Under the pieces are notes generated by a model. That model had not been told where the DNA came from and ran no database searches. It saw nothing but the letters and a program-made list of their open reading frames with translations. A stretch of DNA of 64,000 nt from a virus. A program made the translations under genes and the position numbers. Below are positions 1,891 through 34,478 of the stretch, in pieces (positions within the stretch are counted from its first letter, which is position 1; the number at the start of each line of letters is the position of its first letter). The stretch is from the IMG/VR virus record IMGVR_UViG_3300029998_000020, positions 9,130 through 73,129 of that record, one strand, 5' to 3'.

Positions 1891-2172
1891 ATTTATTTGG
1901 TTATGTTTTTATCTAAATATTCTTTCCACATCTGTTCAACAAATTCTGAACGATTTATATTGTTATCTTTGAGGTATTTATCTATCTTATCAAAAACATC
2001 ATTATTTATTGATATGCTTATGTTCTTCTTCTTTTCTTCTGTTTCTTTTTTTGGTCTACCCATGATTTATTTTATATTTTACTATTATATATGAAAAAAT
2101 ATTCTTGGTTTAAAAATAGAAAAATATGACTTATTTTTATTTATATATAGATAAAAATGATACACAATTATT

Positions 2173-2334
2173 ATGAAAACAGAAAGAAACACAAAAGTAA
2201 TGTCAATAACTATAGATAAGGATGTATATGACAAAATATCAGAATTAGTTAATAACAAATCCAAATTTACTGAATGGCTATTCATTAACTATTTAGATAA
2301 CATCGGAATTGATGTAAAAAATATAAAATTTTAA
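2173..2334 (+). CDS. Ribbon-helix-helix (CopG-like) small DNA-binding protein; not in ORF track
   Basis: MKTERNTKVMSITIDKDVYDKISELVNNKSKFTEWLFINYL..., 53 aa, 1 nt before the HNH gene. Confidence 0.65.
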   Translation: MKTERNTKVMSITIDKDVYDKISELVNNKSKFTEWLFINYLDNIGIDVKNIKF

Positions 2335-2335
2335 A

Positions 2336-3199
2336 ATGGATTATTTAAAAATATATAAAAAATTGATAACAAATGCAATAGAAAGGACAATTTCTGATAA
2401 TGAAGTATATGAAAAACATCATATAATATCAAAATGTATATTCAATGATAACTATTCTATATCAGTATTTAATGATTATTATAAATTAGTCAAATCAAAA
2501 TATAGTCTTAGTAATGTAGTTAAATTAACACTAAGAGAGCATTATATTTCACATTTATTGTTGGTTAGAATTTTTGAAAAAAATAAAAATTGTCATTTTA
2601 AATTATTATGTGCTGCAAATTTTTTGACCAACAGAACAAAAAATAATAGGGAATATGAATGGCAAAAGAAAGAATACATTGAGAAATTAAAAATATCTAT
2701 GACTGGAAAGCCAAGTAGAGCAAAAGGAAAAAAATGGTCAGAAGAATCAAAGAAAAATAAATCAGGCACAAATCATTATATGTATAATAAAAATTATGAT
2801 GAACTTTATGGATTAGAAAAATCTCAAGAGTTGAAAGAAAATAGAAGAAATTCACAATTAGGTAGAATAAAATCAACTGAAGAAAAAAATAAATTATCTA
2901 ACAGAATATTCACAGAAGAATGGAAAAATAATATATCAAAAAATAAAAAAGGTAAAAAACTATCAGAAACAAATAAAGATAATATTAAGAAGTTTATGTT
3001 AAATCCAGATTTGAACCCGAATGTGGATCAGACATTATATAAATTTTACCATATAGATGGCAGGGAAATTATATCAAGAAAAATTGAAATGAAAAAAAAT
3101 TATAATTGTACAGACATACACAAAATAATAAGCGGTATTAGAAAAATTTCTAAAGGATGGAGGTATAAAGGAGAAATAATAAAAAAAAGTGATGAATAA
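2336..3199 (+). CDS. Free-standing HNH homing endonuclease with NUMOD3-like DNA-binding repeats
   Basis: YEKHHII...NVVKLTLREHYISHLLL; K-rich S.E.K..S repeats. Confidence 0.8.
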   Translation: MDYLKIYKKLITNAIERTISDNEVYEKHHIISKCIFNDNYSISVFNDYYKLVKSKYSLSNVVKLTLREHYISHLLLVRIFEKNKNCHFKLLCAANFLTNRTKNNREYEWQKKEYIEKLKISMTGKPSRAKGKKWSEESKKNKSGTNHYMYNKNYDELYGLEKSQELKENRRNSQLGRIKSTEEKNKLSNRIFTEEWKNNISKNKKGKKLSETNKDNIKKFMLNPDLNPNVDQTLYKFYHIDGREIISRKIEMKKNYNCTDIHKIISGIRKISKGWRYKGEIIKKSDE

Positions 3200-3216
3200 T
3201 CATCACTTTTTAATTT

Positions 3217-4296
3217 TTAAATTTTATATAGAGGACAATCACGATTACAACGAATAAGGTTATTTCTAAAATTAATAGTCTTTTCGTTATTCCAAATATC
3301 ATCAATAAAATTACCACATTTTAAAACATTTAGTCCTTCTTTCCAATTTTCTGTATTTGGAGTAAATGAGCAAGGAAAATAATTTCCTTTGACATCAATA
3401 TAGCTACTATAACAACTTGACTCACATGGCTCTACACATTGCTTCATTTTGTTTCTGTATTCATCTGATAATGAGTTATCTGATTCCAAATATTTTAGAA
3501 ATTTGTGACTACTGCAACTATCAAATCCTATACTTATTTTTTCATCTAATGCAAATTTGCAAAGTTCATTAAACTTATCCTGTGGTAAAGGGTGAAATCT
3601 ATTTTCTGCTCTACCTTTAGTTTTTAAACTTAGTAAAACTAATGCGTTAAGATTTTTTAATCTTTCATCATTTTTACAATCTTTAATTACTTGCATTGTA
3701 TAGTCAAAATTTTCCAAGCAAATCATATCGTGAATGTTTACTTGTGTCATTCCTCTATCAGTTAATTCTTTTATTGCGTTGTAACTATTGTCTTTATTAT
3801 AAGATGTACCAACTGATACAGCAACTGCTCCCATTGTTTTTGATAATCTATCATACAATTCTGATGTCATTCGTGATCCATTTATTGTTACATTAGGAAC
3901 AACATCTTGAGAGCGAGTATAATCAAAAATATCCCACATATCTGGATTTGAATCAATGTCTGTTATTCCAAATGCTACCTGAGTTACAGTTAAAGGAAGC
4001 TTAGAAAAAATGTTTTTATATGTGTCTAATGACATATATTCACCATCTTTATTGTTGCTCTTGTAGCAAAATGAACAGTTTTGTTTACACGCTGTGTCAA
4101 TTTCAATATCAGCAATTTCAGGTAATCCTATTTCTAAATCACCATCATCATCTTCTGTTTTACCCCATCTGGCAAAAAACCCTGTTTTTTTGTTAAATAA
4201 GAAATTGTAGTTTTCTGATTTTAAAATTTTAACATCTTTATTATCTACAATTAGTGCTTCTTCACCGTTTGAAAGTTTTAATTTAGTTTGTTTCAT
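3217..4296 (-). CDS. Radical SAM protein with SPASM/twitch-like C-terminus
   Basis: CKQNCSFC (CxxxCxxC); C-terminal PCES.C...YIDVKGNYFPC...C. Confidence 0.85.
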   Translation of the reverse strand: MKQTKLKLSNGEEALIVDNKDVKILKSENYNFLFNKKTGFFARWGKTEDDDGDLEIGLPEIADIEIDTACKQNCSFCYKSNNKDGEYMSLDTYKNIFSKLPLTVTQVAFGITDIDSNPDMWDIFDYTRSQDVVPNVTINGSRMTSELYDRLSKTMGAVAVSVGTSYNKDNSYNAIKELTDRGMTQVNIHDMICLENFDYTMQVIKDCKNDERLKNLNALVLLSLKTKGRAENRFHPLPQDKFNELCKFALDEKISIGFDSCSSHKFLKYLESDNSLSDEYRNKMKQCVEPCESSCYSSYIDVKGNYFPCSFTPNTENWKEGLNVLKCGNFIDDIWNNEKTINFRNNLIRCNRDCPLYKI

Positions 4297-4550
4297 ATTT
4301 TGTTTAATTTGTTTAATTTGTCTCTTCTTTCAGATTTTAATGATGATTCAAATAATTCAATATAATATAATGTATAGGGTTGTTCTGATATTCCTATACG
4401 CAAAATGTCTTTGTTAATAGATGAATATTGTAGTCCATCTACAGTGTAATTTTTATCAAAACTCAAATCTGATGGTATTCCAATTTGCTCAAATATGTTT
4501 GTTGGTTTTTTGAGTATAACTTTATCACCAATTTTCAAGTTTGTTATCAT
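4293..4550 (-). CDS. KIGD-type small beta protein with C-terminal tag
   Basis: Starts LKIGDKVIL, ends ERRDKLNKLNKI. Confidence 0.7.
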   Translation of the reverse strand: MITNLKIGDKVILKKPTNIFEQIGIPSDLSFDKNYTVDGLQYSSINKDILRIGISEQPYTLYYIELFESSLKSERRDKLNKLNKI

Positions 4551-4575
4551 GTTTGATTATTTAAAACATTTTAAT

Positions 4576-4830
4576 TTAACACTCAGATATTTCTATTTCA
4601 TTTGTTTCATTTACATCACAAAAATTCTCATTTAGAATATTCAATGCTTTGTTAAAATTGTTTTCTGTTGTATCTACAACATCTTTATATTCTGATGAAC
4701 TATCAGCATATAAAATAGTCCAACCATTTTTTCCTGCTTGAATCGTTACAATTAACTGTCCTGCTCCAACTCTGAAACTTTTTTCTTTTTCTACCTCACT
4801 TGAAGGCATCATCCCACAAAATCTATTCAT
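4576..4830 (-). CDS. Hypothetical protein
   Basis: 84 aa ORF. Confidence 0.65.
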   Translation of the reverse strand: MNRFCGMMPSSEVEKEKSFRVGAGQLIVTIQAGKNGWTILYADSSSEYKDVVDTTENNFNKALNILNENFCDVNETNEIEISEC

Positions 4831-5009
4831 ATTATTTTACTGTTATTTTTACTAATTTATTCTTCTATTTGTTTATCAATCTTTCTTTTTGATGCATTAT
4901 ATAATCCTAATCTTTTAATTTTAATTGTTTTGTTTGTTAACCACCATTTAACAAAATAAGATTTTTTAATTTTCTTTTTTTGTTTTCTGATGACATAAAT
5001 TTATTTTTT

Positions 5010-5327
5010 TTAAATAGAATAAACAAAGTCTGCTGACATTCTGTGTTCAACTTGTTCTCCTGAGTCATTTTGAAAAGTTAAATATAAACTGTGAATATAT
5101 TCAGTTTTTAGTAATTTGTATGTTTCATCACATACAAATAAGTCATCAACTAGACATGCCTCTTCTATTAGATGATCAATAACTTCTTTTGACTCTAACT
5201 TTTCTTTTATTTCATTATAAGCATCAGAATAAGTGTCTGTATTTTCTACTTTGAAAACAAGTCCATTAGATACCCAGTAATCTTCTCTATCCACATTTGA
5301 GAATAAAATTGCATTTTTCTTTTTCAT
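5010..5327 (-). CDS. Hypothetical protein
   Basis: 105 aa ORF. Confidence 0.65.
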   Translation of the reverse strand: MKKKNAILFSNVDREDYWVSNGLVFKVENTDTYSDAYNEIKEKLESKEVIDHLIEEACLVDDLFVCDETYKLLKTEYIHSLYLTFQNDSGEQVEHRMSADFVYSI

Positions 5328-5339
5328 ATTTTTTATTTT

Positions 5340-5627
5340 TTATTTTTTAAAATCATTCAAAGTTATATAGAACACATCAATTAAAAAGTAATAATCTTTA
5401 TTATATAAATGTTGTTTTGTATAATCGCTATAATTACTTTTCATTGTGCCATACATCATCACACAAGGATATATTGAAGGCGATTTAAATGTTGATGTTT
5501 GGTACTCATATTGTTCTTTTTTTGAACTGTAAATTGCTTTGTTAATATTTTTATTTGGTATAATATTATAGATATCATCTAATAATTTATATAAGTATTT
5601 TTCAGTTTCTAATAATTGTTTTTTCAT
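5340..5627 (-). CDS. Hypothetical protein
   Basis: 95 aa ORF. Confidence 0.6.
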   Translation of the reverse strand: MKKQLLETEKYLYKLLDDIYNIIPNKNINKAIYSSKKEQYEYQTSTFKSPSIYPCVMMYGTMKSNYSDYTKQHLYNKDYYFLIDVFYITLNDFKK

Positions 5628-5629
5628 TT

Positions 5630-5887
5630 TTAAAATAATTTATCTGGAAATATATCTTTATCTAATTTATTGAGTCTTTCATTTAACTCATTATATTTAT
5701 CTATTTTATTTTTGTGAATAATCTTACATACTTTTTCAATTTCTTCTGTTAGATTATTAATAAATCCACATTTGATGACTGTTATCGAATCATCATTCTC
5801 AATTATTGCTACTATTGAATTTTTTTTATATTTCAATTCAATATCGACATCATATTTATCTATAAATTTCAAAATTATACTTTCCAT
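5630..5887 (-). CDS. Hypothetical protein
   Basis: 85 aa ORF, ends with tag-like ERLNKLDKD. Confidence 0.6.
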   Translation of the reverse strand: MESIILKFIDKYDVDIELKYKKNSIVAIIENDDSITVIKCGFINNLTEEIEKVCKIIHKNKIDKYNELNERLNKLDKDIFPDKLF

Positions 5888-5896
5888 TATTATTTT

Positions 5897-6322
5897 TTAT
5901 TGTATAAATATTTGTTTAATCATATTCAATCTTTCTTCATCTGTCATTGGCTTATTCATTTCATATGAATATTTTTCAGATATCAATCTCAATCTTTCAC
6001 TTTCAGAATAATCAAATAAATTATCTATATTTGAACAATCAGCTATGATATTATCTTTGTCATCATAAATTATATAATTATCTTTATTCTGTTCTAATTC
6101 ATCATATATACTATCAGATATAAAATCATTTATTATATTAGCTGTAGATACACCATAAATAGAATTTAATAAAATAATATTAATCTTATTATAAGTTTCT
6201 AAAAAATCAAATAAATCTAATCCATTTTCATGAATACACTTCTCTTTTTTTCCTTCTTCTATAGAAAGTTCAACAAATTTTGTAAATGTGTATTTTTTCA
6301 TACTATTTTTTATTTTTGTCAA
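5897..6322 (-). CDS. Hypothetical protein
   Basis: ORF in operon; true start may be the second Met (MKKYTF). Confidence 0.6.
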   Translation of the reverse strand: MTKIKNSMKKYTFTKFVELSIEEGKKEKCIHENGLDLFDFLETYNKINIILLNSIYGVSTANIINDFISDSIYDELEQNKDNYIIYDDKDNIIADCSNIDNLFDYSESERLRLISEKYSYEMNKPMTDEERLNMIKQIFIQ

Positions 6323-7106
6323 TATCAGGAAATATGTATTCCAAGTAATATCTTGTTAATGAATATACATCAGCCCATTCAGATTTGCTACCAGAAAAAT
6401 TTGTATTGATGAATGACAAACCAGTATTATAAAAATATTCTTTATTTATCTCTTTTTTAACATCTGTTATTATATAGGCATCACCCAATTTATCACCAAC
6501 TTTAAAATCAGCTATTTTATTAGCCATATCGTTTTCAGCAAACAATTCACAATGTTTACTGAAAACTTCATCACAGGCAAATAATAACAAATCTAAACTG
6601 TATATGGTTTCACCTATTTGAGCCATTTTAACCTCAGTGAATTTAGGACGAACAAATGAAAGAGTATTCCAAATAGCATGAACGTTATCTTTTTCAATAA
6701 TTTCAATTAGTGAAGGAAGAATTTGTTTCATTGTTAAAAATTTGTCATCAACATGTGCATCAGAGGTTTCATCATCCATTTTGTCACGGTCATCACTTAT
6801 TGTGAAAACAGACATTCTATCTCGATATGAAATTTCTTTATCTTTGTTAATAGATATAAATGTGAAATGACTACTATATTGTCTTACTAATAGTTGAACA
6901 TTATCCTTAACTAAGAAAAACCAATCATAGTTTTTTCCCTCACTAAATTTTAAATCGTCAAAGGTAAATTTATCATCAACAGTATTGATAGGTATATATT
7001 TTAACAAATATTCAAAACTATATTTTAATTTTTGTATCAGCTTATTTTCATAAACTATGTGTTGTTTAAAATTGCTTTCTTCAAACTTGAAAATATCTTT
7101 TTCCAT
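6303..7106 (-). CDS. Hypothetical protein
   Basis: 267 aa ORF with TATCTTTG -7 element at 7130-7137. Confidence 0.7.
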   Translation of the reverse strand: MEKDIFKFEESNFKQHIVYENKLIQKLKYSFEYLLKYIPINTVDDKFTFDDLKFSEGKNYDWFFLVKDNVQLLVRQYSSHFTFISINKDKEISYRDRMSVFTISDDRDKMDDETSDAHVDDKFLTMKQILPSLIEIIEKDNVHAIWNTLSFVRPKFTEVKMAQIGETIYSLDLLLFACDEVFSKHCELFAENDMANKIADFKVGDKLGDAYIITDVKKEINKEYFYNTGLSFINTNFSGSKSEWADVYSLTRYYLEYIFPDIDKNKK

Positions 7107-7486
7107 ATTGTTTTTATTTTTTAATTACACAAAGATACTAATTAATTTGATGATTATATTAATCAAGAGCTATTTTTTATTTATTTTTAACTATTTAACT
7201 AATATCGTGATTATTAGTTAGTTATAAATAAAAATAAACTATTTGTTTATTTAAGTCTATACAATAACATACTAAGTTAATTTATGGTAACTATTTATTA
7301 CTATATAATAATATAACTAATAATTATAAATCAAATTAGATAATCTAATTTTATAATTAATTGATGATTTAATCTGCTGATTTCCTTACTGTGAATCATA
7401 TCTTATAGGCAGATTTTACTTTTTTACTTTGAATTTATACAATAATTCTACTTTTTAAAATCATCAATCAAAAACAAATTAAAGAC

Positions 7487-14132: not shown

Positions 14133-16007
14133 TTATTTTATTTCCTCAAAATCCACGTCTGTTACATTTTCAGAATCATCTTTTTTGTCAGATGAATTGC
14201 TTTCATTCGTTGACTGATTTTTTGATTCTTCATAAAGTTTACCACTAATGTTTTGCCAAACATCATTAAGTTCTTTGGTGTATTTATCAATATTATCAAC
14301 ATTTTGAGTTTTGTGAGCTTCTTTAAGATTATCAAGTTTAGAATTCAATTCAGTTTTGTTTTCTTCATTCAATTTATCACCAAATTCTTCAATTTGTTTT
14401 TCAGTTTGAAAAATCATTGAGTCAGCTTGATTCAACTTATCAACTTTTTCTTTTTCTTTCTTATCAGCATCAGAATTTTGTTCAGCTTCCATTTTCATTC
14501 TTTCAATCTCTTCTTTTGTTAGAGATGAATTACCTTCAATCCTAATGTCATTCTTTTTTCCTGTTGCTTTATCAACTGCAGTAACTGTCAAAATATTATT
14601 TGCATCAATTGAAAACGAAATTTCTATTTGCGGTACTCCTCGTCTGGCTGGCATAATTCCATCTAAATTAAAAGTTCCCAACATTTTATTATCCTTAAAC
14701 ATACTTCTATTTCCAGTTGAAACATTAATCTGAACACCAGGCTGATTGTCAGTGGCTGTACTGAATATTTGTGTCTTAGTTGTAGGAATTGTTGTATTAG
14801 CCTCTACCATGACACTGGCTACACCGCCCATACTCTCCAGTGAGAAGTTTAAAGCTGTAACATCGAGTAATAAGATGTCAGTTGTATCACCAGCAAGAAC
14901 AGATGCTTGTATAGCTGCACCTGATGCAATTGCAGTATCAGGATTAAGTGACTTATTCGCTTTCTTACCAAAATATTTTTCAATACTTTCTGACAAATAT
15001 GGAATTCTAGTGCTACCTCCAACAAGTACAATTTCGTCAATATCTGAAACTTTCTTACCACTTTTATTCATTGATGATTGAATCAATGATATTGTTTTAT
15101 CAACATAGAATTGAATCAATTGTTCAAATTTAGATCTTGTTAATTTTTGAACCAAATGTTTAGGTTGTCCATCTACAGCAGTGATGTATGGTAAATTTAT
15201 TTCTGTTTGTGTAGTATTAGACAATTCTATTTTTGCTTTTTCTGATGCTTCTGTAACACGTTGTAGAGCCATTGGATCTTTACGAATATCAACGCCTGTT
15301 TCTTTTAAAAATTCATCAGATATAAAATTCACAAGTGCGTCATCAATTAAATTACCACCTAAATCTAAATCACCATCAGTTCCAATAACTTCAAATAATC
15401 CGTCCTCTATATCTAAAACTGAAAAATCACTTGTACACCCACCACTATCAACTATCATATAAAGTTTACCAGTTTTATCTTTAATATTTAATGATGCTGC
15501 TGTTGGTTCAGATATAATTCTATCAACAGTAAATCCTGCTATTTCACCTGCAACTTTTGTACTGCTTCTTTCATCTGAATTGAAATATGCTGGAGTTGTT
15601 ATGACCGCATTGGTTACATTTGTTCCAAGGTAATCTTCTGCTGTTTTTTTCATTTTTTGAAGGATCATTGCAGAAATTTCTTCTGGTGAATATATTCTTT
15701 CACCAATTTTTACACCAGCCTTACCATTATTATCAACTATATCATAAGGACGTTTAAGATGTTTAACTTCCTCATAAGTTCTACCAATAAGTCTTTTGAT
15801 ATTAAAAATTGTGTTTTTTGGATTTAATGCTGCTTGTCTTTTTGCAGATTCACCAACTTTAATTTCTCCTGTTTTTTCATCAAATGATACAATTGAAGGA
15901 GTTGATAGCGATCCTTCTGAATTAGGTATGACAATTGTTTGTCCACCTTCTACTATAGATACGGCTGAATTGTATGAACCTAAATCTATTCCAATAATTT
16001 TTCCCAT
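14133..16007 (-). CDS. dnaK: Hsp70 chaperone DnaK
   Basis: MGKIIGIDLG, IKRLIGR, EPTAA, VGGSTRIP, DNQPGV, RGVPQIEISF, C-terminal DVDFEEIK. Confidence 0.97.
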   Translation of the reverse strand: MGKIIGIDLGSYNSAVSIVEGGQTIVIPNSEGSLSTPSIVSFDEKTGEIKVGESAKRQAALNPKNTIFNIKRLIGRTYEEVKHLKRPYDIVDNNGKAGVKIGERIYSPEEISAMILQKMKKTAEDYLGTNVTNAVITTPAYFNSDERSSTKVAGEIAGFTVDRIISEPTAASLNIKDKTGKLYMIVDSGGCTSDFSVLDIEDGLFEVIGTDGDLDLGGNLIDDALVNFISDEFLKETGVDIRKDPMALQRVTEASEKAKIELSNTTQTEINLPYITAVDGQPKHLVQKLTRSKFEQLIQFYVDKTISLIQSSMNKSGKKVSDIDEIVLVGGSTRIPYLSESIEKYFGKKANKSLNPDTAIASGAAIQASVLAGDTTDILLLDVTALNFSLESMGGVASVMVEANTTIPTTKTQIFSTATDNQPGVQINVSTGNRSMFKDNKMLGTFNLDGIMPARRGVPQIEISFSIDANNILTVTAVDKATGKKNDIRIEGNSSLTKEEIERMKMEAEQNSDADKKEKEKVDKLNQADSMIFQTEKQIEEFGDKLNEENKTELNSKLDNLKEAHKTQNVDNIDKYTKELNDVWQNISGKLYEESKNQSTNESNSSDKKDDSENVTDVDFEEIK

Positions 16008-26504: not shown

Positions 26505-27047
26505 TTATTTACCTTGTCTTTTTAAAATAGCTTTTTGTAAGCCTTCTGGTAATTTTTTTTGAGATGCGGACAATCCTTTTTTGTCTTCTTCATCATCTTC
26601 ATCATCATCATCATCATCATCTTTTTTAGATTTGCTCATTGGTTTTTTCTTTTCATCTTTATCTTTCTTATCATCATCTTTCATCTTTTTTACAACTTTG
26701 CCTTTCTTTTCACTCTTTTCATCATCGTCATCATCGTCTTCATCTTTGATGTTTTTGAATTCTTTAAGAATATCTTTTGCTACATCAGTACGTTTAGTTG
26801 GTCCTGATTTTTTAAACAAGTCTTTTTCAGAAAAATCATTAAGACAACAAAGATTGTTTAATTTACCATATGAGTTTTCTTCTTTGCTCTTTGATTTTTC
26901 TGTGATGTTTTTTCCGCCAGATTCTTCTTTGTTTTCAAAAATATCTTTTGCAACTTCAGTTCTTTTCGTAACTTTTGCGTTTTTGAATACTTCTTTTTCT
27001 GAAAAATTATCCATGCTAAGTAGATTATTTAATTTAGTATCTTTCAT
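26505..27047 (-). CDS. Acidic/basic low-complexity protein with two TKRT[DE]VAKD repeats
   Basis: Internal duplication; poly-Asp tail; TAATATATA upstream. Confidence 0.7.
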   Translation of the reverse strand: MKDTKLNNLLSMDNFSEKEVFKNAKVTKRTEVAKDIFENKEESGGKNITEKSKSKEENSYGKLNNLCCLNDFSEKDLFKKSGPTKRTDVAKDILKEFKNIKDEDDDDDDEKSEKKGKVVKKMKDDDKKDKDEKKKPMSKSKKDDDDDDDEDDEEDKKGLSASQKKLPEGLQKAILKRQGK

Positions 27048-27626: not shown

Positions 27627-28115
27627 TCATCTTGGATTAATTCTATTTGCAACCTGCATCATTGAATTGTATCTTGCCTTTTCAAACATTTCTAAAGATA
27701 TATAATCAGAATTTGAGAAATCAATATTTTCATTTAATCTTTGACGTTCCTGAGTTTGTTTTATTTCATTTAATCTTTCGTCACGAAGTTTTTGCATAAC
27801 TTCATTTAACTTATTTTCTCTTTCTTCTTGTTTAACTTCATTGATAATCTGTCCATTTACTCTTTTCTCAATGTTAAATTCATTAATGTTAAAATCTTGT
27901 GAGTATTCTTGTCTTCTTACTTCATTTATATTTTGAGTTTTAAAATTACTATAATTATCGTTATAATTAGTATAGTCAGTAGTTTCTTTTAACATTTGAG
28001 TGTTGTATGAGTTGTCGTTACCTCGTAATTGCTCATATGCATAATTTGTTGATTCTGATTTTTGTGTATTTACTTGTTTAAACAAGTCTAAATACGATTG
28101 ATCGTAATATTCCAT
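27627..28115 (-). CDS. N/E/Q-rich protein with repeated [IL]NE motifs (scaffold/core-like candidate)
   Basis: INE, LNE repeated; two TAATATATA motifs upstream. Confidence 0.6.
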   Translation of the reverse strand: MEYYDQSYLDLFKQVNTQKSESTNYAYEQLRGNDNSYNTQMLKETTDYTNYNDNYSNFKTQNINEVRRQEYSQDFNINEFNIEKRVNGQIINEVKQEERENKLNEVMQKLRDERLNEIKQTQERQRLNENIDFSNSDYISLEMFEKARYNSMMQVANRINPR

Positions 28116-28165
28116 TCTATTGTATTGTTTTTGTTATATATTATTATGATGAGTATATATTAATA

Positions 28166-29113
28166 TTACAAGTTAAATTTGGTTATATCTTCATAAAATG
28201 GATTTTCCTTTATAAAATCAGCAAATCTCTCATAAAAAAGTTCTCCATTATTCTTTTTTAACATATTATAAAATTTAGGATATGCACCCAATCTCAATAA
28301 TTTTGTTGATATGTCAATACCTCCTAATCCAGATTCATAATATAATCTATTGTATATTAAAATAACAAAATCATCATACATATATTTTTTAAGTGGAGTC
28401 ATAAAATCATCTATTATATTAAAATTTTTCTCAATCATTGGTAACATATTTGAAAATGTTTTCATATCTTGAATTATCACACCATTATCAAATAGAGTTT
28501 TAAATATATTTATTACTATATTTTTACTTTTATCACTATAATGTCTTAGTTGATAAGTCAAAGGATATAAATAACTTACTTGGTCCTTACCATTTAAATT
28601 TACATTGTTTTTTATTAATAATTCTAATATTTTTTTATTTAATATGGATCCTGTGAGAACTGATTGAGAATTGATATCTATTTTATTTATATCTACTCCA
28701 TCGTTAATTATTTTTTGATATAACTCAACATTGAACAACTTCTTTATTGCTAATGTAATTAGTGTTGTTCTATTAATTTTGGTTACTTGATTAATATTAG
28801 CTCCTAAATCATACAATTTTTTGAATACTTTAAGACTCTTGCAAAAAAATAACACATTCTCGCCTGTAGATTTTACTACTTGATTTAAGTCAACTTTAAA
28901 TTTTAAAATATAATCAATCAAATCTTCATTATTAGATGAAACTACACTCATTAATACGTTTTTACCACTTTTATCACTATAATTAACTAATCTATTAATT
29001 AATGCTGAGTTTTTGTTGTCTTCTGTTTCTAATGATTTTAATATTTCAATTATATCTTCATTAGACATTGATATGTTTTCATTTAATAGAAACATGTTAT
29101 ATTTTTTTATCAT
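28166..29113 (-). CDS. Ankyrin-repeat protein with CTS-like N-terminus and KFNL C-terminus
   Basis: GKNVLM, GENVLF, LYDLGANIN, DGVDIN repeats. Confidence 0.75.
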   Translation of the reverse strand: MIKKYNMFLLNENISMSNEDIIEILKSLETEDNKNSALINRLVNYSDKSGKNVLMSVVSSNNEDLIDYILKFKVDLNQVVKSTGENVLFFCKSLKVFKKLYDLGANINQVTKINRTTLITLAIKKLFNVELYQKIINDGVDINKIDINSQSVLTGSILNKKILELLIKNNVNLNGKDQVSYLYPLTYQLRHYSDKSKNIVINIFKTLFDNGVIIQDMKTFSNMLPMIEKNFNIIDDFMTPLKKYMYDDFVILIYNRLYYESGLGGIDISTKLLRLGAYPKFYNMLKKNNGELFYERFADFIKENPFYEDITKFNL

Positions 29114-29114
29114 A

Positions 29115-29501
29115 TTATATATTGAATTTATTTGAGTTTTTATAAAATTCTAAGTTTTCTGGATGTTCTAAAAAAGAAACATTGTTATATCCTATAATTA
29201 TTCCATAATCGTCTATTAATAATCCACAATTTTTTGCATATTTCTCAGCCTCAATATCATCTTTAATTAAAATTGAGTCATCATCTTTTTGTATTTGCCA
29301 ATAATCTCCATATTTATTTGTATATGGTACATTATATTCATTTGGAATATTCAATCCTGATGCATGTGAAATAAGCCAACCTTCTTTTTTCATTATATCA
29401 TCATAAAGATTACAAAACCATTCAATGAAGGGCTGAAATAAATCTATTGGATATATTTTCTTATTATCTTTAATATTTTCATATTTTTTGATATATTTCA
29501 T
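29115..29501 (-). CDS. Late protein with CTS-like N-terminus and KFNI C-terminus
   Basis: MKYIKKYEN...FYKNSNKFNI. Confidence 0.7.
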   Translation of the reverse strand: MKYIKKYENIKDNKKIYPIDLFQPFIEWFCNLYDDIMKKEGWLISHASGLNIPNEYNVPYTNKYGDYWQIQKDDDSILIKDDIEAEKYAKNCGLLIDDYGIIIGYNNVSFLEHPENLEFYKNSNKFNI

Positions 29502-29549
29502 TTATAACATATATTTATTTATATATATTAAAAAATTAAAGTTATTTTT

Positions 29550-30176
29550 ATGAGCAAAAGTGAAACACCAACAGAGAAAGATTATAGAGAATCATTTCAA
29601 TCAAATATAGACAAATTAAAAACTGAAATTGAAGATGCACAAGAAGAATTGGATTTTGATCCATCAGAATTTTTTCCAGTTAATAATAACATAGATTTAA
29701 ATTTCAAAATTGAAATGCATGATTATGAAAAAGATTTGGAAGTAATAAGAGAAGAATCTAAAGAAACACTTGAATGCATAGCAAATTTATATTTATCAGA
29801 AGATATTATGTTAAATAAAAATATAAATAACATAATAAAAAATGATGCACTTGCAATTTCTGATTTAAAATTTTCAATTTCATGTTCAAAAAGAGGATTA
29901 ATAAATCTGATGAAGCAAATAGATAATGGCAGTTCAGACGCTGATTTATTTCAGGCTGTTTCTATGTTTCAAAGAGAAATGAAAGATTGTATTGAAACTT
30001 TATATAAATTACAAAAAAGTATGAAAGAATTTTTTAAAGATTTAAAAGAAGAATTAAAGGAAATAAACATAGGTGATAGTGAAGTAGAAATACACGATAA
30101 GTATAAAGATATGAGAATTTCAGATAGAGATATTAACAAATCAATTGATATTATATTAGCATCTAAAAAGAAATAA
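29550..30176 (+). CDS. Helical acidic hypothetical protein
   Basis: 208 aa ORF, divergent promoter region. Confidence 0.7.
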   Translation: MSKSETPTEKDYRESFQSNIDKLKTEIEDAQEELDFDPSEFFPVNNNIDLNFKIEMHDYEKDLEVIREESKETLECIANLYLSEDIMLNKNINNIIKNDALAISDLKFSISCSKRGLINLMKQIDNGSSDADLFQAVSMFQREMKDCIETLYKLQKSMKEFFKDLKEELKEINIGDSEVEIHDKYKDMRISDRDINKSIDIILASKKK

Positions 30177-30208
30177 AAAAATCAGTAGATATTCTACTGA
30201 TTTTTTTT
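30175..30208. terminator. Bidirectional terminator
   Basis: AAAAAATCAGTAG-ATATT-CTACTGATTTTTT. Confidence 0.75.
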
Positions 30209-30478
30209 AAATGTTTCTGATTTAATTTTTTCTATTGCTACTATCACTATGCTAACGTACACTTTCTTTTTTTCATCTAAAAGTTCACACATATGCTTTG
30301 TACTATCAGACAATCCTTTTAATTTATCATATTCTTCATCAGTTAAATAAACAGTTTTATTATTATTTCTTCTTGTTGAATATTCCTGAGTTTTAGTTAA
30401 CTCTCCATTTTCACTCAACTCATAAGGATTTCTAAATTTATCCTTATCAACTTCTTCATTAAATTTTTCTATTTTCAT
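30194..30478 (-). CDS. Late protein, paralog of 30493-30777
   Basis: MKIEKFNEE; NGEL...LTD[DE]EY shared. Confidence 0.7.
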   Translation of the reverse strand: MKIEKFNEEVDKDKFRNPYELSENGELTKTQEYSTRRNNNKTVYLTDEEYDKLKGLSDSTKHMCELLDEKKKVYVSIVIVAIEKIKSETFKKNQ

Positions 30479-30492
30479 ATTACTTTTTATTT

Positions 30493-30777
30493 TTATAAAT
30501 TAAATTTATTAGTTGTTCTCATAAATTCAGAGTCATCTTTAACTTTTGATATTGCAGTTCTTAGTCTTAATATCTGTGTTTCTTTCATTGCATTATAATT
30601 CTCACAAGATTTTTTTATATTATCAGCTAAATCTTTTATTCTACTATACTCATCATCAGTTAAGAAAATATTAGAACTCATGGTGTTGCCAAGTTTCAAT
30701 TCTCCATTTTTAGGTTCAATAAAATATCCTTTTTCTCTTGAACTTTCGTTTATTTCTTCAAATTTATTCACCTTCAT
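30493..30777 (-). CDS. Late protein with CTS-like N-terminus and KFNL end
   Basis: MKVNKFEEINES...TTNKFNL. Confidence 0.7.
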   Translation of the reverse strand: MKVNKFEEINESSREKGYFIEPKNGELKLGNTMSSNIFLTDDEYSRIKDLADNIKKSCENYNAMKETQILRLRTAISKVKDDSEFMRTTNKFNL

Positions 30778-30778
30778 A

Positions 30779-31120
30779 TTATATGTTAAATTTTTTTGAA
30801 TTTTTATACACCTCAGGATTGTCTACAAATTTCATTATATCATCAAATTCACTTTGATTTATAATATCACAATATTTTTTTTTAGAACTAGATTCTATAA
30901 TAATCATAACAGAATAAAAATATCCGTTATTTTCAAAATCTTTCTCAATAGTCTTTTCTATACTAATTGCTTTAACTTTTTTAAGTCCATATCCATAATG
31001 ATTTATTCTAAATTGATCATTGAAATTATAATAATCACTTATGAGATTCATAATATCTAACCTTATTCTTTCACACTCATGGTTTAATTTTAAATATTCA
31101 TCATATTTATTTACCTTCAT
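30779..31120 (-). CDS. Late protein, tandem paralog of 31122-31451 (start revised to MKVNKYDEY)
   Basis: Ends NPEVYKNSKKFNI. Confidence 0.7.
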   Translation of the reverse strand: MKVNKYDEYLKLNHECERIRLDIMNLISDYYNFNDQFRINHYGYGLKKVKAISIEKTIEKDFENNGYFYSVMIIIESSSKKKYCDIINQSEFDDIMKFVDNPEVYKNSKKFNI

Positions 31121-31121
31121 A

Positions 31122-31451
31122 TTATATGTTAAATTTTTTTGAGTTTTTATATACATCAGGATTTTCTATAAATTTAATCATATCATCATATTCACTTTGA
31201 GTTAACTTATCATAATTTCTACCTCCTGGTACATAATATTCTATCCAATAAAAATATTCTCCTGAATCATAATCTATTTCATCAGACTTACTAACATTTA
31301 AGACAATTTTAATATTATTATCTCCAATATGAGTTATTCTGAAATCATCATTCAAATTATAATAATCTTGAATTAGACTCATAATATTACTTCTTTCGAT
31401 ATCGTATTTATCTTTCAACTTTAAAAATTGTTCATATCTAGTTACTTTCAT
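31122..31451 (-). CDS. Late protein, tandem paralog of 30779-31120
   Basis: MKVTRYEQF...NPDVYKNSKKFNI. Confidence 0.7.
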   Translation of the reverse strand: MKVTRYEQFLKLKDKYDIERSNIMSLIQDYYNLNDDFRITHIGDNNIKIVLNVSKSDEIDYDSGEYFYWIEYYVPGGRNYDKLTQSEYDDMIKFIENPDVYKNSKKFNI

Positions 31452-31457
31452 GCCAAT

Positions 31458-31763
31458 TTAATTCATTTTGAAATATTTATCATAAACAAACTCAGCGGTA
31501 TATTCTTTTCTTTTATCTTTAAGATTATTTATTTCTTCTAATATTTCTGGATTGTTATCAAACATATTTTTTAGATAAGATTCCGCTTCATCTAATTGAT
31601 TAAAAGACTTTTCACTTATATGTTTTTCATTACAATATATGTGTGATATGTGATCAAATACATCATCAACATAATTTCTTACTGGAAATTTCCATCCAAA
31701 TGAATTTATTTCATATTCTGGATTTTTATTGTACATTTCCGTTATTAATTTAACGTGATTCAT
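31458..31763 (-). CDS. Late small protein with CTS-like N-terminus
   Basis: MNHVKLITE. Confidence 0.65.
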   Translation of the reverse strand: MNHVKLITEMYNKNPEYEINSFGWKFPVRNYVDDVFDHISHIYCNEKHISEKSFNQLDEAESYLKNMFDNNPEILEEINNLKDKRKEYTAEFVYDKYFKMN

Positions 31764-31793
31764 TTAAATATATTTATTTTTCAGTATATATAA

Positions 31794-31824
31794 AAAAAAA
31801 TACACTTAAATAAGTGTATTTTTT
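31794..31824 (-). terminator. Intrinsic terminator
   Basis: AAAAAATACACTTA-AA-TAAGTGTATTTTTT. Confidence 0.7.
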
Positions 31825-33665
31825 AATAATATTTCAAACTTTATATTTGTATCATTTTTAATATATACTCTATTCATTATATTGAAAATATATTTAAATA
31901 TTCTTTTAAGTTCTTTTCTTTGAGTTTTTCTTGCATCTATTAGAGTGCTACTGTAAATATCATTCAATTCAAATTTTGTATAAATTTTTTCAAATAGTAT
32001 ACTATTTTCAATGTCTTTATTTCTTTTGAAATATATTTTTTCTAAATCATTTGATTTTACTGTTCTACATTTAATTTCATTAAAGTCTGTATCTAGCCAA
32101 ATATCATATATTTTTCTGATAGTATCATTTTTGAATTTTGAAATTATATTTTCATCTTTAATACTATTTGTAATAATATAATTTAATATTTCTATTTCAT
32201 CATTTTCAACTTTAATATCATTTTCACTACTAATATTATTAATATCCATTAATTTTTTATTGACTTCATCAGGTGCAAAAACTTTGCCTTTTTCATCTGA
32301 TTCATTCCAAGCCATTGTGATACCCCACTTAACTCCTGAAATATCATTAATAATTTTATTTCTTAATAAATCTAAAAATTTAATATTTTTATAATTTTCT
32401 TTTTTGCATTTTTTGAAAATATTAGATATTGAACCAATACCAGTATGTCCACCTGCAACTGTTCTATCATCATCATATTCTAAATGTTGTTTGAAGTTTT
32501 TTAATAAACCATCCATATATGAACCTAAATTATCAATTGGTATACCATTCTTATCTTTTGGTAAATCATCTGGCGACATATCAGACATTTTAGTTGTCAA
32601 ATTTGCAATTTGAAGTGTATTACCATATTGTAACAGAACGAAATTTAATTTAGTATTATACTGAATAATACCTGATTCAACATCTTGTGAAAAAATAGCC
32701 TTAGCTCTTAATGCATTCGCCCAAGTTCCTGACGGTACATACATTAAATTTCCTATTATTTGATATACAACAGGCTTAACTTGCCATTTTAATTCATCAG
32801 TATTTATTACATTACCTTCATCATCATGATCTATGTATGGAATTTTTTGTGCAAATTTTTTCCAAAATTCATCTTGTGATGAAAATATTATTTTTTTACC
32901 ATCTTCTGTGAACCCTTGTGATTCATTTCCAATACCTTTTGTTTTTGATTTCATTTGTTCTAATCTTAAATATGCATCAGATACAAATTCAGGTTCATCA
33001 CCATTTTTGAAATTAGGATTATTTTTAGGATAGAATATTTTAAATAATCTGAAAATGTTATATATTGATGGTTCTTGAGATGCATTTATAACTTCAATAA
33101 ATGTTTTATGGTCAGAACGCTTGAGCATTTGATTAAATGATGCTGCAAAATTTAACTTTGCATTATCACTATTGATAATATTATTTAAATCAAAATCTAA
33201 TATACCTTTGATGTCTACATGATACTCATCATATTTTGCAGAATCAATCATGTCTATCCAATCTTTTGTGTCATTTGAAAATGGTATGCCTAATTGTTGA
33301 GCTAAACCTTCAGCTGCAGAACCAGTATTTGTTTTTATACTACCTTTCTTTTGTGCTATTATTTTCTCTTCTTCAGAAAAAATTCCATGGTGGTCGACAT
33401 AATAATTAAATGACTCATCATCCGAAGAAAAATCTAATGTTATATTAATCAGTGAGTTATCTAATTTGAATGCATCAACACCTTCTTGGTAATCAATCAA
33501 ACCATATCTAAGAATTTTAAAATCATGATTAATTAAATAATTCTTCATTATTATTGCGGAAACTATTCCGTCTAAATCATTGTGTGTAATTAAACATACA
33601 TTTTTTCCAGATTTGCCTTTTTTTAGCCAATAATTTATATCATTTGGAAGTCTTGGTGCAGCCAT
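31806..33665 (-). CDS. DHH/DHHA1-family phosphoesterase-like protein
   Basis: ITHNDLDG, TLDF, VDHH, AGGH. Confidence 0.75.
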   Translation of the reverse strand: MAAPRLPNDINYWLKKGKSGKNVCLITHNDLDGIVSAIIMKNYLINHDFKILRYGLIDYQEGVDAFKLDNSLINITLDFSSDDESFNYYVDHHGIFSEEEKIIAQKKGSIKTNTGSAAEGLAQQLGIPFSNDTKDWIDMIDSAKYDEYHVDIKGILDFDLNNIINSDNAKLNFAASFNQMLKRSDHKTFIEVINASQEPSIYNIFRLFKIFYPKNNPNFKNGDEPEFVSDAYLRLEQMKSKTKGIGNESQGFTEDGKKIIFSSQDEFWKKFAQKIPYIDHDDEGNVINTDELKWQVKPVVYQIIGNLMYVPSGTWANALRAKAIFSQDVESGIIQYNTKLNFVLLQYGNTLQIANLTTKMSDMSPDDLPKDKNGIPIDNLGSYMDGLLKNFKQHLEYDDDRTVAGGHTGIGSISNIFKKCKKENYKNIKFLDLLRNKIINDISGVKWGITMAWNESDEKGKVFAPDEVNKKLMDINNISSENDIKVENDEIEILNYIITNSIKDENIISKFKNDTIRKIYDIWLDTDFNEIKCRTVKSNDLEKIYFKRNKDIENSILFEKIYTKFELNDIYSSTLIDARKTQRKELKRIFKYIFNIMNRVYIKNDTNIKFEILLKNTLI

Positions 33666-33690
33666 ATTTTTTATTTTTATAATTAGATTA

Positions 33691-33720
33691 CAAAGATAAC
33701 AAAATATTTCTAATATACAA
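33691..33720 (-). promoter_or_regulatory. Bacteroidota sigma70-type promoter
   Basis: TTG-N19-TATCTTTG. Confidence 0.75.
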
Positions 33721-33732
33721 CCATTTGACTGT

Positions 33733-34218
33733 TTAATTTTTCTTGGAGAGTAGAGATGTTATATCACTAATAAACTTATCAGAATGTTTTGGATTCATAT
33801 TTTCAACAATTGAAAAATTACCATTCCCTTTTACTTTTATTCCTTCTGTGATTTTTCTAAGTTCTGGCTTAGTTGAATAGTATTTCAATAAACTATTAAC
33901 AAATTCATTAATATTCATTTTTAATTTTTCATTGTACTTAACAATGTGTAATTGATTATCTTTCTTTCTGATAAAATAATCAGTATCAGAATATTTATTT
34001 TTAATTGTTTCAAGTATATCAGTTATATTACCGTTATTGAATTTGATAATTCTTTCTTCTAATATTTCAATTGTTGAAGTAGAATCATCTTTAGGAGTCA
34101 ATAAAACTTCTTCTTTTATAGGTTCATCTTCAATATAAGTATTAATTGAAATTTTAGATTCAGTAGGTATGTTTTGTACATTTAATGTATCAAAATCACT
34201 ATAGCGTTTTATTGGCAT
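33733..34218 (-). CDS. Late protein, paralog of 48167-48571
   Basis: MPIKRYSDF; KKDNQLHIVKYN...KGN..FSIV. Confidence 0.7.
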   Translation of the reverse strand: MPIKRYSDFDTLNVQNIPTESKISINTYIEDEPIKEEVLLTPKDDSTSTIEILEERIIKFNNGNITDILETIKNKYSDTDYFIRKKDNQLHIVKYNEKLKMNINEFVNSLLKYYSTKPELRKITEGIKVKGNGNFSIVENMNPKHSDKFISDITSLLSKKN

Positions 34219-34338
34219 ATTTTTTTATTAATTTTATATTAATTTATATTATATATTAATAAATTAAAGTCATTTTATTTTTATTGACAAATAAATGTTA
34301 TTTGTAGTTAAATAAATACCTTATTCATTCAAATTGTA

Positions 34339-34368
34339 TTGTATATTTATGATAATGTTGTATCTTTG
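34339..34368 (+). promoter_or_regulatory. Bacteroidota sigma70-type promoter
   Basis: TTG-N19-TATCTTTG. Confidence 0.75.
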
Positions 34369-34478
34369 TATTCAAATTAATTGAAATGATGAAAGAATAA
34401 ATTAAAATAGACTGAATTTGCACTACAATATGACGGAGATTATTCATTTAAAGTATTTAAAATTTAATAAAAAACATT

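Follow-up and report, generated by a model that had tools for sequence, protein, structure and literature searches.

A C-terminal K-[FY]-N-[ILM] ending paired with an N-terminal leader on unrelated proteins of a megaphage lineage

The tagged genes and their locus

The window analyzed here is a stretch of 64,000 nucleotides (nt) that corresponds to bases 9130-73129 of a 92,766-bp IMG/VR virus record (IMGVR_UViG_3300029998_000020), and its G+C content is 26%. The record has the gene content of a tailed phage, including genes for PhoH and Hsp70, a collagen-like fibre gene, and a split family-B DNA polymerase gene that adjoins a homing endonuclease, and it further contains an NAD synthase gene, a radical S-adenosylmethionine (radical-SAM) gene, and several glycosyltransferase genes. 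Exactly five open reading frames (ORFs) of this contig, all on the minus strand at window positions 28166-31451, close in K-F-N-[IL]-stop; the five endings had been noted in a preliminary description made from the letters of the DNA. No ORF other than these five (genes A, B, C, D, and F) ends in K-F-N-[ILVM]. The same ending in its wider form, K-[FY]-N-[ILM]-COOH, closes 114 distinct proteins in this contig and in related IMG/VR megaphage records; it is referred to below as the tag, and its usual companion at the N-terminus as the leader. Proteins identical to those of genes A and F are recorded on a contig of 711,471 bp.

Genes A, B, and D belong to one operon that is headed by a 101-amino-acid (aa) gene. 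Gene A (31122-31451, 109 aa) begins with the leader MKVTRYEQF and ends in ...KNSKKFNI-COOH, with tag codons at 31125-31136, and its homologues at 70-72% identity retain the ending. Gene B (30779-31120, 113 aa) is a tandem paralogue of A (44% identity, BLASTP E 3e-32) that likewise ends in KNSKKFNI (tag codons 30782-30793). B starts one base past the stop of A; this start, at 31120 (MKVNKYDEY), is most likely the correct one, rather than the listed start at 31156, an upstream ATG that overlaps A. Gene D (30493-30777, 94 aa) has the leader MKVNKFEE and the end ...TTNKFNL (tag codons 30496-30507). The final gene of the operon, E (30194-30478, 94 aa), is an untagged paralogue of D (BLASTP E 2e-11) that retains a leader (MKIEKFNEE) and ends in ...TFKKNQ. 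The other two tagged genes form the operon C-F. Gene C (29115-29501, 128 aa) combines the canonical leader MKYIKKYE with the end ...NSNKFNI (tag codons 29118-29129), and gene F (28166-29113, 315 aa) encodes an ankyrin-repeat protein (Pfam Ank_2) with the leader variant MIKKYNMFLLNE and the end ...DITKFNL (tag codons 28169-28180).

AlphaFold models of A and F are both confident, with a predicted local distance difference test (pLDDT) score of 89.3 and 89.1, respectively, and their folds differ. The model of A consists of a long helix, a second helix, three strands, and a further helix, and it had no match at E <= 0.001 in fold searches of PDB and BFVD; the model of F is an all-helical ankyrin solenoid. 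In these two unrelated models, the last seven residues that bear the tag are predicted as a coil of lower confidence (residues 103-109 of A, where the final block has a mean pLDDT of 68, and residues 309-315 of F, about 69). The leader of F forms a helix at residues 2-11 with pLDDT values of 49-64. Scans of A-E and the conserved neighbors against Pfam and PHROG yielded no informative family.

The two operons are separated by a convergent gene on the plus strand (29550-30176), which encodes a conserved helical protein of 200-220 aa in the middle of the block. Its orthologues (in the related loci L004, L005, L010, L013, L014, and L016) are always convergent inside the variable tagged block. This gene has a class B-like motif (defined below) upstream and shares a bidirectional terminator with E, namely an intrinsic-terminator-like hairpin on the minus strand (30175-30207) between the two genes that has a 15-pair stem followed by a T run and is the sole such site in 28000-34400. 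On the other side of the longer operon lies a DHH-like gene (31806-33665, minus strand, 619 aa), the synteny anchor of the locus. The gene at 26505-27047, which adjoins the block in all relatives, encodes a conserved 180-aa protein with long low-complexity runs of Asp, Glu, and Lys; this protein matches no family and might be scaffold- or histone-like. Upstream of the window, six genes at positions 1984-7453 of the contig start with M-K-[IL]-R-x-G-F-V-S-N-S-S-S-S and constitute a third set of genes in this phage that share an N-terminus.

Frequency, position, and carriers of the ending

The relatives examined were 17 syntenic IMG/VR loci (51-86% identity) that were anchored on the adjacent DHH-like gene. 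Internal K[FY]N[ILM] occurs at a rate of 2.2e-4 per position, and about 0.03 terminal cases would be expected among the 139 ORFs of this contig, against five observed. Across the 502 ORFs of the contig and the related loci, 39 terminal cases were found against 0.09 expected. Thus, the terminal enrichment that the preliminary description had proposed as a check is evident in both sets, and its five cases are part of a larger phenomenon, with dozens of tagged genes per 100-250 kb in relatives. When six array regions of related records were added, the set comprised 599 ORFs, of which 114 were distinct carriers and 485 were non-carriers. A degenerate DNA pattern covering the tag codons and a stop gave 74 matches vs. 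12 in controls in a 256-kb record, 30 vs. 11 in a second record, and 19 vs. 2 in a third, and many of these matches form tandem arrays with a spacing of 300-500 bp. The locus is hyperplastic: the conserved anchor genes enclose one to five tagged genes in each relative, and the set differs from one relative to the next.

The tag is exactly terminal in all 114 carriers, and no protein carries it with 1-10 residues beyond. Relaxation of one position at a time added few proteins: K at -4 accounted for 114 of 120, F or Y at -3 for 114 of 118, N at -2 for 114 of 115, and I, L, M, or V at -1 for 114 of 115. Near-tags with a replaced Lys (N-F-N-L and Q-F-N-L; L048:18853-19188, L049:13520-14026, and P0026) sit inside tagged arrays and, in one case, on an ankyrin orthologue; these could be tags in decay or variants that are tolerated. 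A profile was built from the C-terminal 34 residues of 110 carriers; it gave its own members a median score of about 15 bits and a maximum of 32, which is too low for a census of 1.8 billion proteins. A literature search on the motif strings and on megaphage terminal motifs found no publication that describes the ending.

The carriers were clustered with both termini trimmed, using BLASTP and iterative hidden Markov model (HMM) searches. The five window carriers fell into four body types (the A/B tandem pair, C, D, and F), in agreement with the earlier claim that three of the bodies are unrelated. A likeness among A, B, and C runs slightly upstream of the tag (E-[NH]-P ... Y-K-N-S-x-K-F-N-I) and is absent from D and F. 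The 114 carriers, which range from 38 to 460 aa in length, formed 70 BLASTP clusters and 62 iterative-HMM clusters, with 55 singletons and three larger families of 21, 16, and 10 members. Their Pfam domains include radical SAM, ankyrin, and ExoX-like_C. In a related phage, a 426-aa radical-SAM enzyme (L014:12228-13508) has both the leader and a K-Y-N-L ending, which places the label on a large enzyme fold.

Comparison with untagged homologues indicates that the tag is an appended piece, because the majority of D-family proteins stop some 10 residues sooner and the body of C recurs without a tag. Among the 21 representatives of the D/E family in a library of 1.84 billion proteins, most stop at ...K[VI]KKDS(K), and only three extend 9-12 residues further to K[FY]NL. 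Residues 62-122 of C are similar to a protein encoded elsewhere in the contig (window 11256-11771, E 7e-5), which has no tag and continues differently for 70 more residues.

Constraint on the two ends and association with upstream motifs

Gene F has 29 homologues at 40-100% identity. In the alignment of 26 members of this ankyrin family, conservation at the final four positions was 0.96 for K, 1.0 for the aromatic residue, 1.0 for N, and 1.0 for L/I; the two positions just before the tag are variable (0.35 and 0.19), and the body mean is 0.58. The codons of the tag vary: the aromatic residue is encoded by TTT, TTC, TAT, or TAC, Asn by AAT or AAC, and the last residue by any of six codons, and the stop is TAA or TGA. 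Synonymous and conservative codon variation occurs at all tag positions except Lys. Since the last four residues of the ankyrin family are fixed after a variable linker while their codons vary synonymously, these alignments point to selection on the tag at the protein level that is independent of the downstream gene. No start codon was found within 40 nt downstream in 30 of the 114 tags, including that of gene F, and one tag is followed by a convergent gene; conservation of the tag did not depend on an adjacent start codon or on the nucleotide sequence. At the Asn position of the tag, AAC is used in 50 of 114 cases (44%), compared with 12% of 8,827 other Asn codons (p 7e-18). Among tags at overlapping ATGA junctions, AAC reaches 58%, and among isolated tags, 35%; the excess might reflect selection for the accurate decoding of a residue that is essential.

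Position -3 differs between lineages. In the near clade (this contig, designated G000, together with G001, G002, and L002), F occurs in 72 of 74 carriers and Y in two, whereas Y occurs in all 26 carriers of the distant clade (G003, G004, G005, and L014). This switch was also found within the orthologous ankyrin family. A concerted change from F to Y across unrelated genes, including isolated ones, is expected from co-evolution with a single binding pocket, and a common reader is implied because position -3 switches lineage-wide across unrelated genes. Position 7 of the leader, which also may be F or Y, showed no co-variation with the F or Y of the tag (37/10/8/8).

The leader in its strict form, M-K-[YH]-[IL]-K-x-[FY]-E, occurs in 66 of the 114 carriers, and a leader was seen in only 27 of the 485 non-carriers, which bears out the earlier claim that the tag co-occurs with N-termini resembling the T4 capsid-targeting sequence (CTS). 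Most of the other carriers have variants, either M-I-T-x-F-K-[IL]-F-E or the one-residue-shorter form seen in A, B, D, and E, and the leader closes in a conserved Glu. In the ankyrin family, E12 is invariant and usually lies in L/I-x-E, in which a gp21-type prohead protease would be expected to cut after Glu. The logo of the carrier leaders contains no hydrophobic stretch of the signal-peptide type. Two orthologues of the DHH-like gene, both from distant relatives (L010:7974-9872 and L016:7965-9887), carry a 10-13-residue leader ending in Glu. This leader (...FES or ...LES) directly precedes A-P-R, at which the leaderless copies start, and the window copy (31806-33665) is leaderless. Furthermore, one orthologue of F has the canonical leader instead of the variant. 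From these comparisons, the leader behaves as a module, because DHH orthologues exist with and without it, with the boundary exactly after Glu, and an F orthologue swaps one type for another.

A second tail, R..K[LI]..[LI] (hereafter the RK tail), likewise recurs at the C-terminus of many small proteins of this phage. In the broader form R..K[LIFV]..[LIFMV], it was found in none of the 114 carriers and in 43 of the 485 non-carriers; thus, the statement that the tag is exactly terminal and never accompanied by the RK tail extends to the whole set. Proteins with the RK tail are basic, with a median isoelectric point (pI) of 8.5, compared with 5.95 for the tag carriers. The idea that the two tails share bodies was rejected at the sequence level, and HMMs of the three largest tagged families matched no RK-tailed protein.

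Two motifs were recognized upstream of the genes, namely TAnnTTTG (class A) and a T run followed by ATATATA that is located 15-50 nt before the start codon (class B). Both tagged operons of the window lie directly behind class B motifs on the minus strand, one (a T run and ATATATAC) at 31784-31800, 20 nt before the 101-aa gene that heads the operon 101aa-A-B-D-E, and the other (a T run and AATATATAT) at 29521-29537, about 20 nt before the start of C. Units behind class B motifs contain 108 genes, of which 50 are tagged and one is RK-tailed, and units behind class A motifs contain 59 genes, with six of each (Fisher p 9e-5), an association that emerged with a widened class B pattern after earlier, narrow promoter patterns had given none that was clear. 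A further 46 RK-tailed genes are in units with neither motif. The earlier proposal that two terminal codes track two promoter classes was therefore supported for the tag and class B, but not for the RK tail, which is not tied to class A.

A class B motif is also present upstream of the collagen-like fibre gene and of a gene with a TIG domain, and because of these two genes, late expression of the class B units is hinted at; the description of the tagged proteins as late is suggested to this extent. This promoter-like motif appears to place the tagged genes under common control with fibre genes. A scan for the sigma-70 consensus gave hits at chance level in this AT-rich DNA. The class A motif (TTATCTTTGTA, TAnnTTTG) was found on the minus strand 15-28 nt before starts at window positions 33691-33698 (before the DHH-like gene), 40943, 22872, 16844, 13929, 13355, and 7130. 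TAnnTTTG is the form of the -7 promoter box of Bacteroidota. Most starts lack a Shine-Dalgarno sequence, and these two features suggest a Bacteroidota host, with transcription of the class A units by the host polymerase (early).

Possible function of the proposed two-ended label

The reading preferred here, which has a probability of roughly 0.6, is that K-[FY]-N-[ILM]-COOH is a portable and strictly C-terminal short linear motif that is paired with the leader on unrelated megaphage proteins, and that the two ends form a label read by one factor. A flexible tail bearing the tetrapeptide would be appended to many unrelated bodies that have a leader ending in Glu at the other end, and both ends would be read by the common factor as an address or docking label. 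The cargo would be a large and fast-turning-over set of small proteins that are loaded into the prohead or virion. The leader may act in the manner of the T4 CTS and be removed after Glu, with the C-terminal peptide and its free carboxylate providing a second contact. Taken on its own, loading into the prohead or virion is the leading candidate for the destination, although it is less likely than not. It is tentatively possible, although we would not bet on it, that the label is a phage-run protein-sorting code on perhaps a sixth of the genes, that is, a tetrapeptide of the PTS1 (peroxisomal targeting signal 1) or KDEL kind plus a leader, whose dedicated and co-evolving receptor would direct the proteins to the capsid interior for ejection or to a phage-built compartment.

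Several results weigh against the preferred reading. The related records that were searched for readers and head genes (5-10 records) are fragments with an estimated completeness of 13-36%. In five of these (G000, G001, G002, G006, and G007), PDZ_2, Peptidase_S41, and TPR_8 had no match, although these records are fragments and a host reader is possible. Peptidase_S77, the T4-type prohead protease, had no match in 10 fragment records, in which the control likewise matched no genome, and no full major capsid gene was found in the fragment records searched, only a 40-residue Gp23-like fragment. The prohead part is further weakened by the canonical leader, which reads I-K-x-F-E and hence has no [LI]-x-E cleavage motif, and by the carriers themselves, which are very numerous (about 60 above control in 256 kb), mildly acidic in comparison with the basic internal proteins of T4, and inclusive of enzymes such as the radical-SAM protein. 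None of the neighboring genes is recognizably structural in the Pfam and PHROG scans.

Two alternatives would dispense with a label altogether. If the carriers were diverged copies of one gene of which the termini are the best-kept parts, large families and tandem duplicates would be anticipated, and both exist, in the form of the three sizeable carrier families and the A/B and D/E pairs. However, this simple paralogy is scarcely tenable, as 62 clusters of widely differing lengths persist after iterative HMM searches, the Pfam domains belong to unrelated folds, the two confident AlphaFold models differ, and the untagged homologues of D and C end or run on differently; the full-length homology of all carriers that the preliminary description had named as its refutation was not found. 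It is also very improbable that the conserved feature is one of DNA or RNA, namely a stop-start junction consisting of the tag codons, ATGA, and the leader codons that serves as a translational-coupling element or as a PeSL-like recombination boundary, with the peptide as a by-product. The next start codon (ATGA) does overlap 49 of the 114 tags, and 18 more tags lie within 12 nt of a start; over 115 IMG/VR stretches, the majority from a single sample series, contain the stop-start sequence; the tandem arrays and the hyperplastic locus suggest recombination at boundaries; and the AAC share at the Asn codon is highest at the overlapping junctions. Such a junction fails to account for the 30 tags that have no start nearby and the one that is followed by a convergent gene, for leaders at the heads of arrays that have no tag upstream, and for residues that are constant while their codons vary, which in the ankyrin family extends over 40-100% identity and differing downstream contexts. 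Such junctions may well assist the spread of the label, yet they do not explain it.

The remaining alternatives accept a common reader and differ in what it does. The label could dock or address the proteins to a site other than the capsid, such as a phage compartment or condensate, a chaperone or assembly hub, or host export, with the proteins acting inside the infected cell. The evidence for a common reader serves this possibility equally well, and numerous, mildly acidic carriers that include enzymes fit a cytoplasmic subset better than capsid cargo; the phage also has an Hsp70 gene (window 14133-16007). Such a destination is nevertheless unlikely: no candidate receptor or compartment gene was identified, the leader has no signal-peptide-like stretch, and the link to Hsp70 is a co-occurrence in one contig. 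A C-terminal basic-aromatic-x-aliphatic peptide and a leader could instead be degrons that mark the proteins for timed degradation by a ClpXP-, Lon-, or Tsp-type protease of the host or phage. In favor of this, the tag sits at the very end of a flexible tail, where it presents a free carboxylate and an aliphatic final residue, and ClpX signals of the MuA type, which are C-terminal, combine a basic character with a hydrophobic end. This explanation is quite improbable, because degrons are usually loosely defined, whereas the tag has a near-invariant N at -2 and K at -4, the lineage-wide switch between F and Y points to a specific co-evolving pocket, and the marking of so many phage genes at both ends for destruction is hard to explain; moreover, the records searched contained no S41 peptidase.

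In T4, the CTS comprises the first 10 residues, which suffice for capsid targeting, with residues 4 and 7 mattering most and cleavage occurring after Glu (PMC9026906, PMC5694885). The T4 protein Alt carries propeptides at both ends, and both are trimmed (PMC9026906), and the internal proteins of T-even phages have been described as a diverse, defence-countering set that shares only the CTS (PMC3012670). In comparison with the T4 N-termini (MKTYQEFIAE in IPII and IPIII, and MKTFKEF in IPI), the megaphage leaders (MKVTRYEQF, MKVNKFEE, and MKYIKTFE) similarly begin with M-K, followed by a pair of hydrophobic or aromatic residues at a spacing of three and then by Glu. Both systems place a short leader on otherwise unrelated and fast-evolving small proteins in variable loci, and the two-ended label resembles the propeptides at both ends of Alt. 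On the other hand, the megaphage leaders lack the T4 sequence itself and, in canonical form, the [LI]-x-E site, T4 lacks a conserved C-terminal tetrapeptide, and a handful of basic proteins in T4 compares with dozens to probably more than 100 mildly acidic ones here. The megaphage fragments showed no gene for a gp21-type protease, a scaffold, or a capsid protein. The parallel to the T4 CTS seems real but incomplete.

For the C-terminus, the closest likeness is to cellular systems with known receptors, namely the class II PDZ ligands (hydrophobic-x-hydrophobic-COOH), PTS1 (SKL-COOH), and KDEL-COOH. These are exactly terminal codes of three to four residues that are movable among unrelated proteins, and [FY]-N-[IL]-COOH on a flexible tail fits hydrophobic-x-hydrophobic-COOH. 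All 114 carriers have the form of a class II PDZ ligand, exactly terminal and hydrophobic at ligand positions 0 and -2 (I, L, M, or V last, and F or Y at -3 from the stop). Lys at -4 and Asn at -2 from the stop lie outside these codes, and searches of the phage records turned up neither a PDZ nor a TPR reader. T4-type phages contain hyperplastic regions and PeSL mobile regulatory cassettes, to which the present locus is similar in its tandem small genes, its fast gain and loss of genes between anchors, and its conserved sequence at gene boundaries. In contrast to PeSL, the megaphage boundary lies inside coding sequence, is conserved as a peptide, and persists without a neighboring gene.

To our knowledge, terminal address peptides of phages are known essentially from the T4 CTS, which occurs on a handful of proteins and at the N-terminus only. 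In the present lineage, whose phages are about 700 kb in size, a C-terminal four-residue code with a free carboxylate, together with a leader, marks unrelated proteins in numbers from dozens to probably well over 100 per genome, and new genes could be recruited into the pathway by gaining approximately 10 residues at each end. If one receptor reads the label, the label would define a large and easily recognized functional subset of the megaphage "dark" proteome, would offer a handle on the sorting machinery (by peptide pull-down and by co-variation of the F/Y pocket), and could be used as a transferable tag to direct foreign proteins, a purpose that the T4 CTS has already served.

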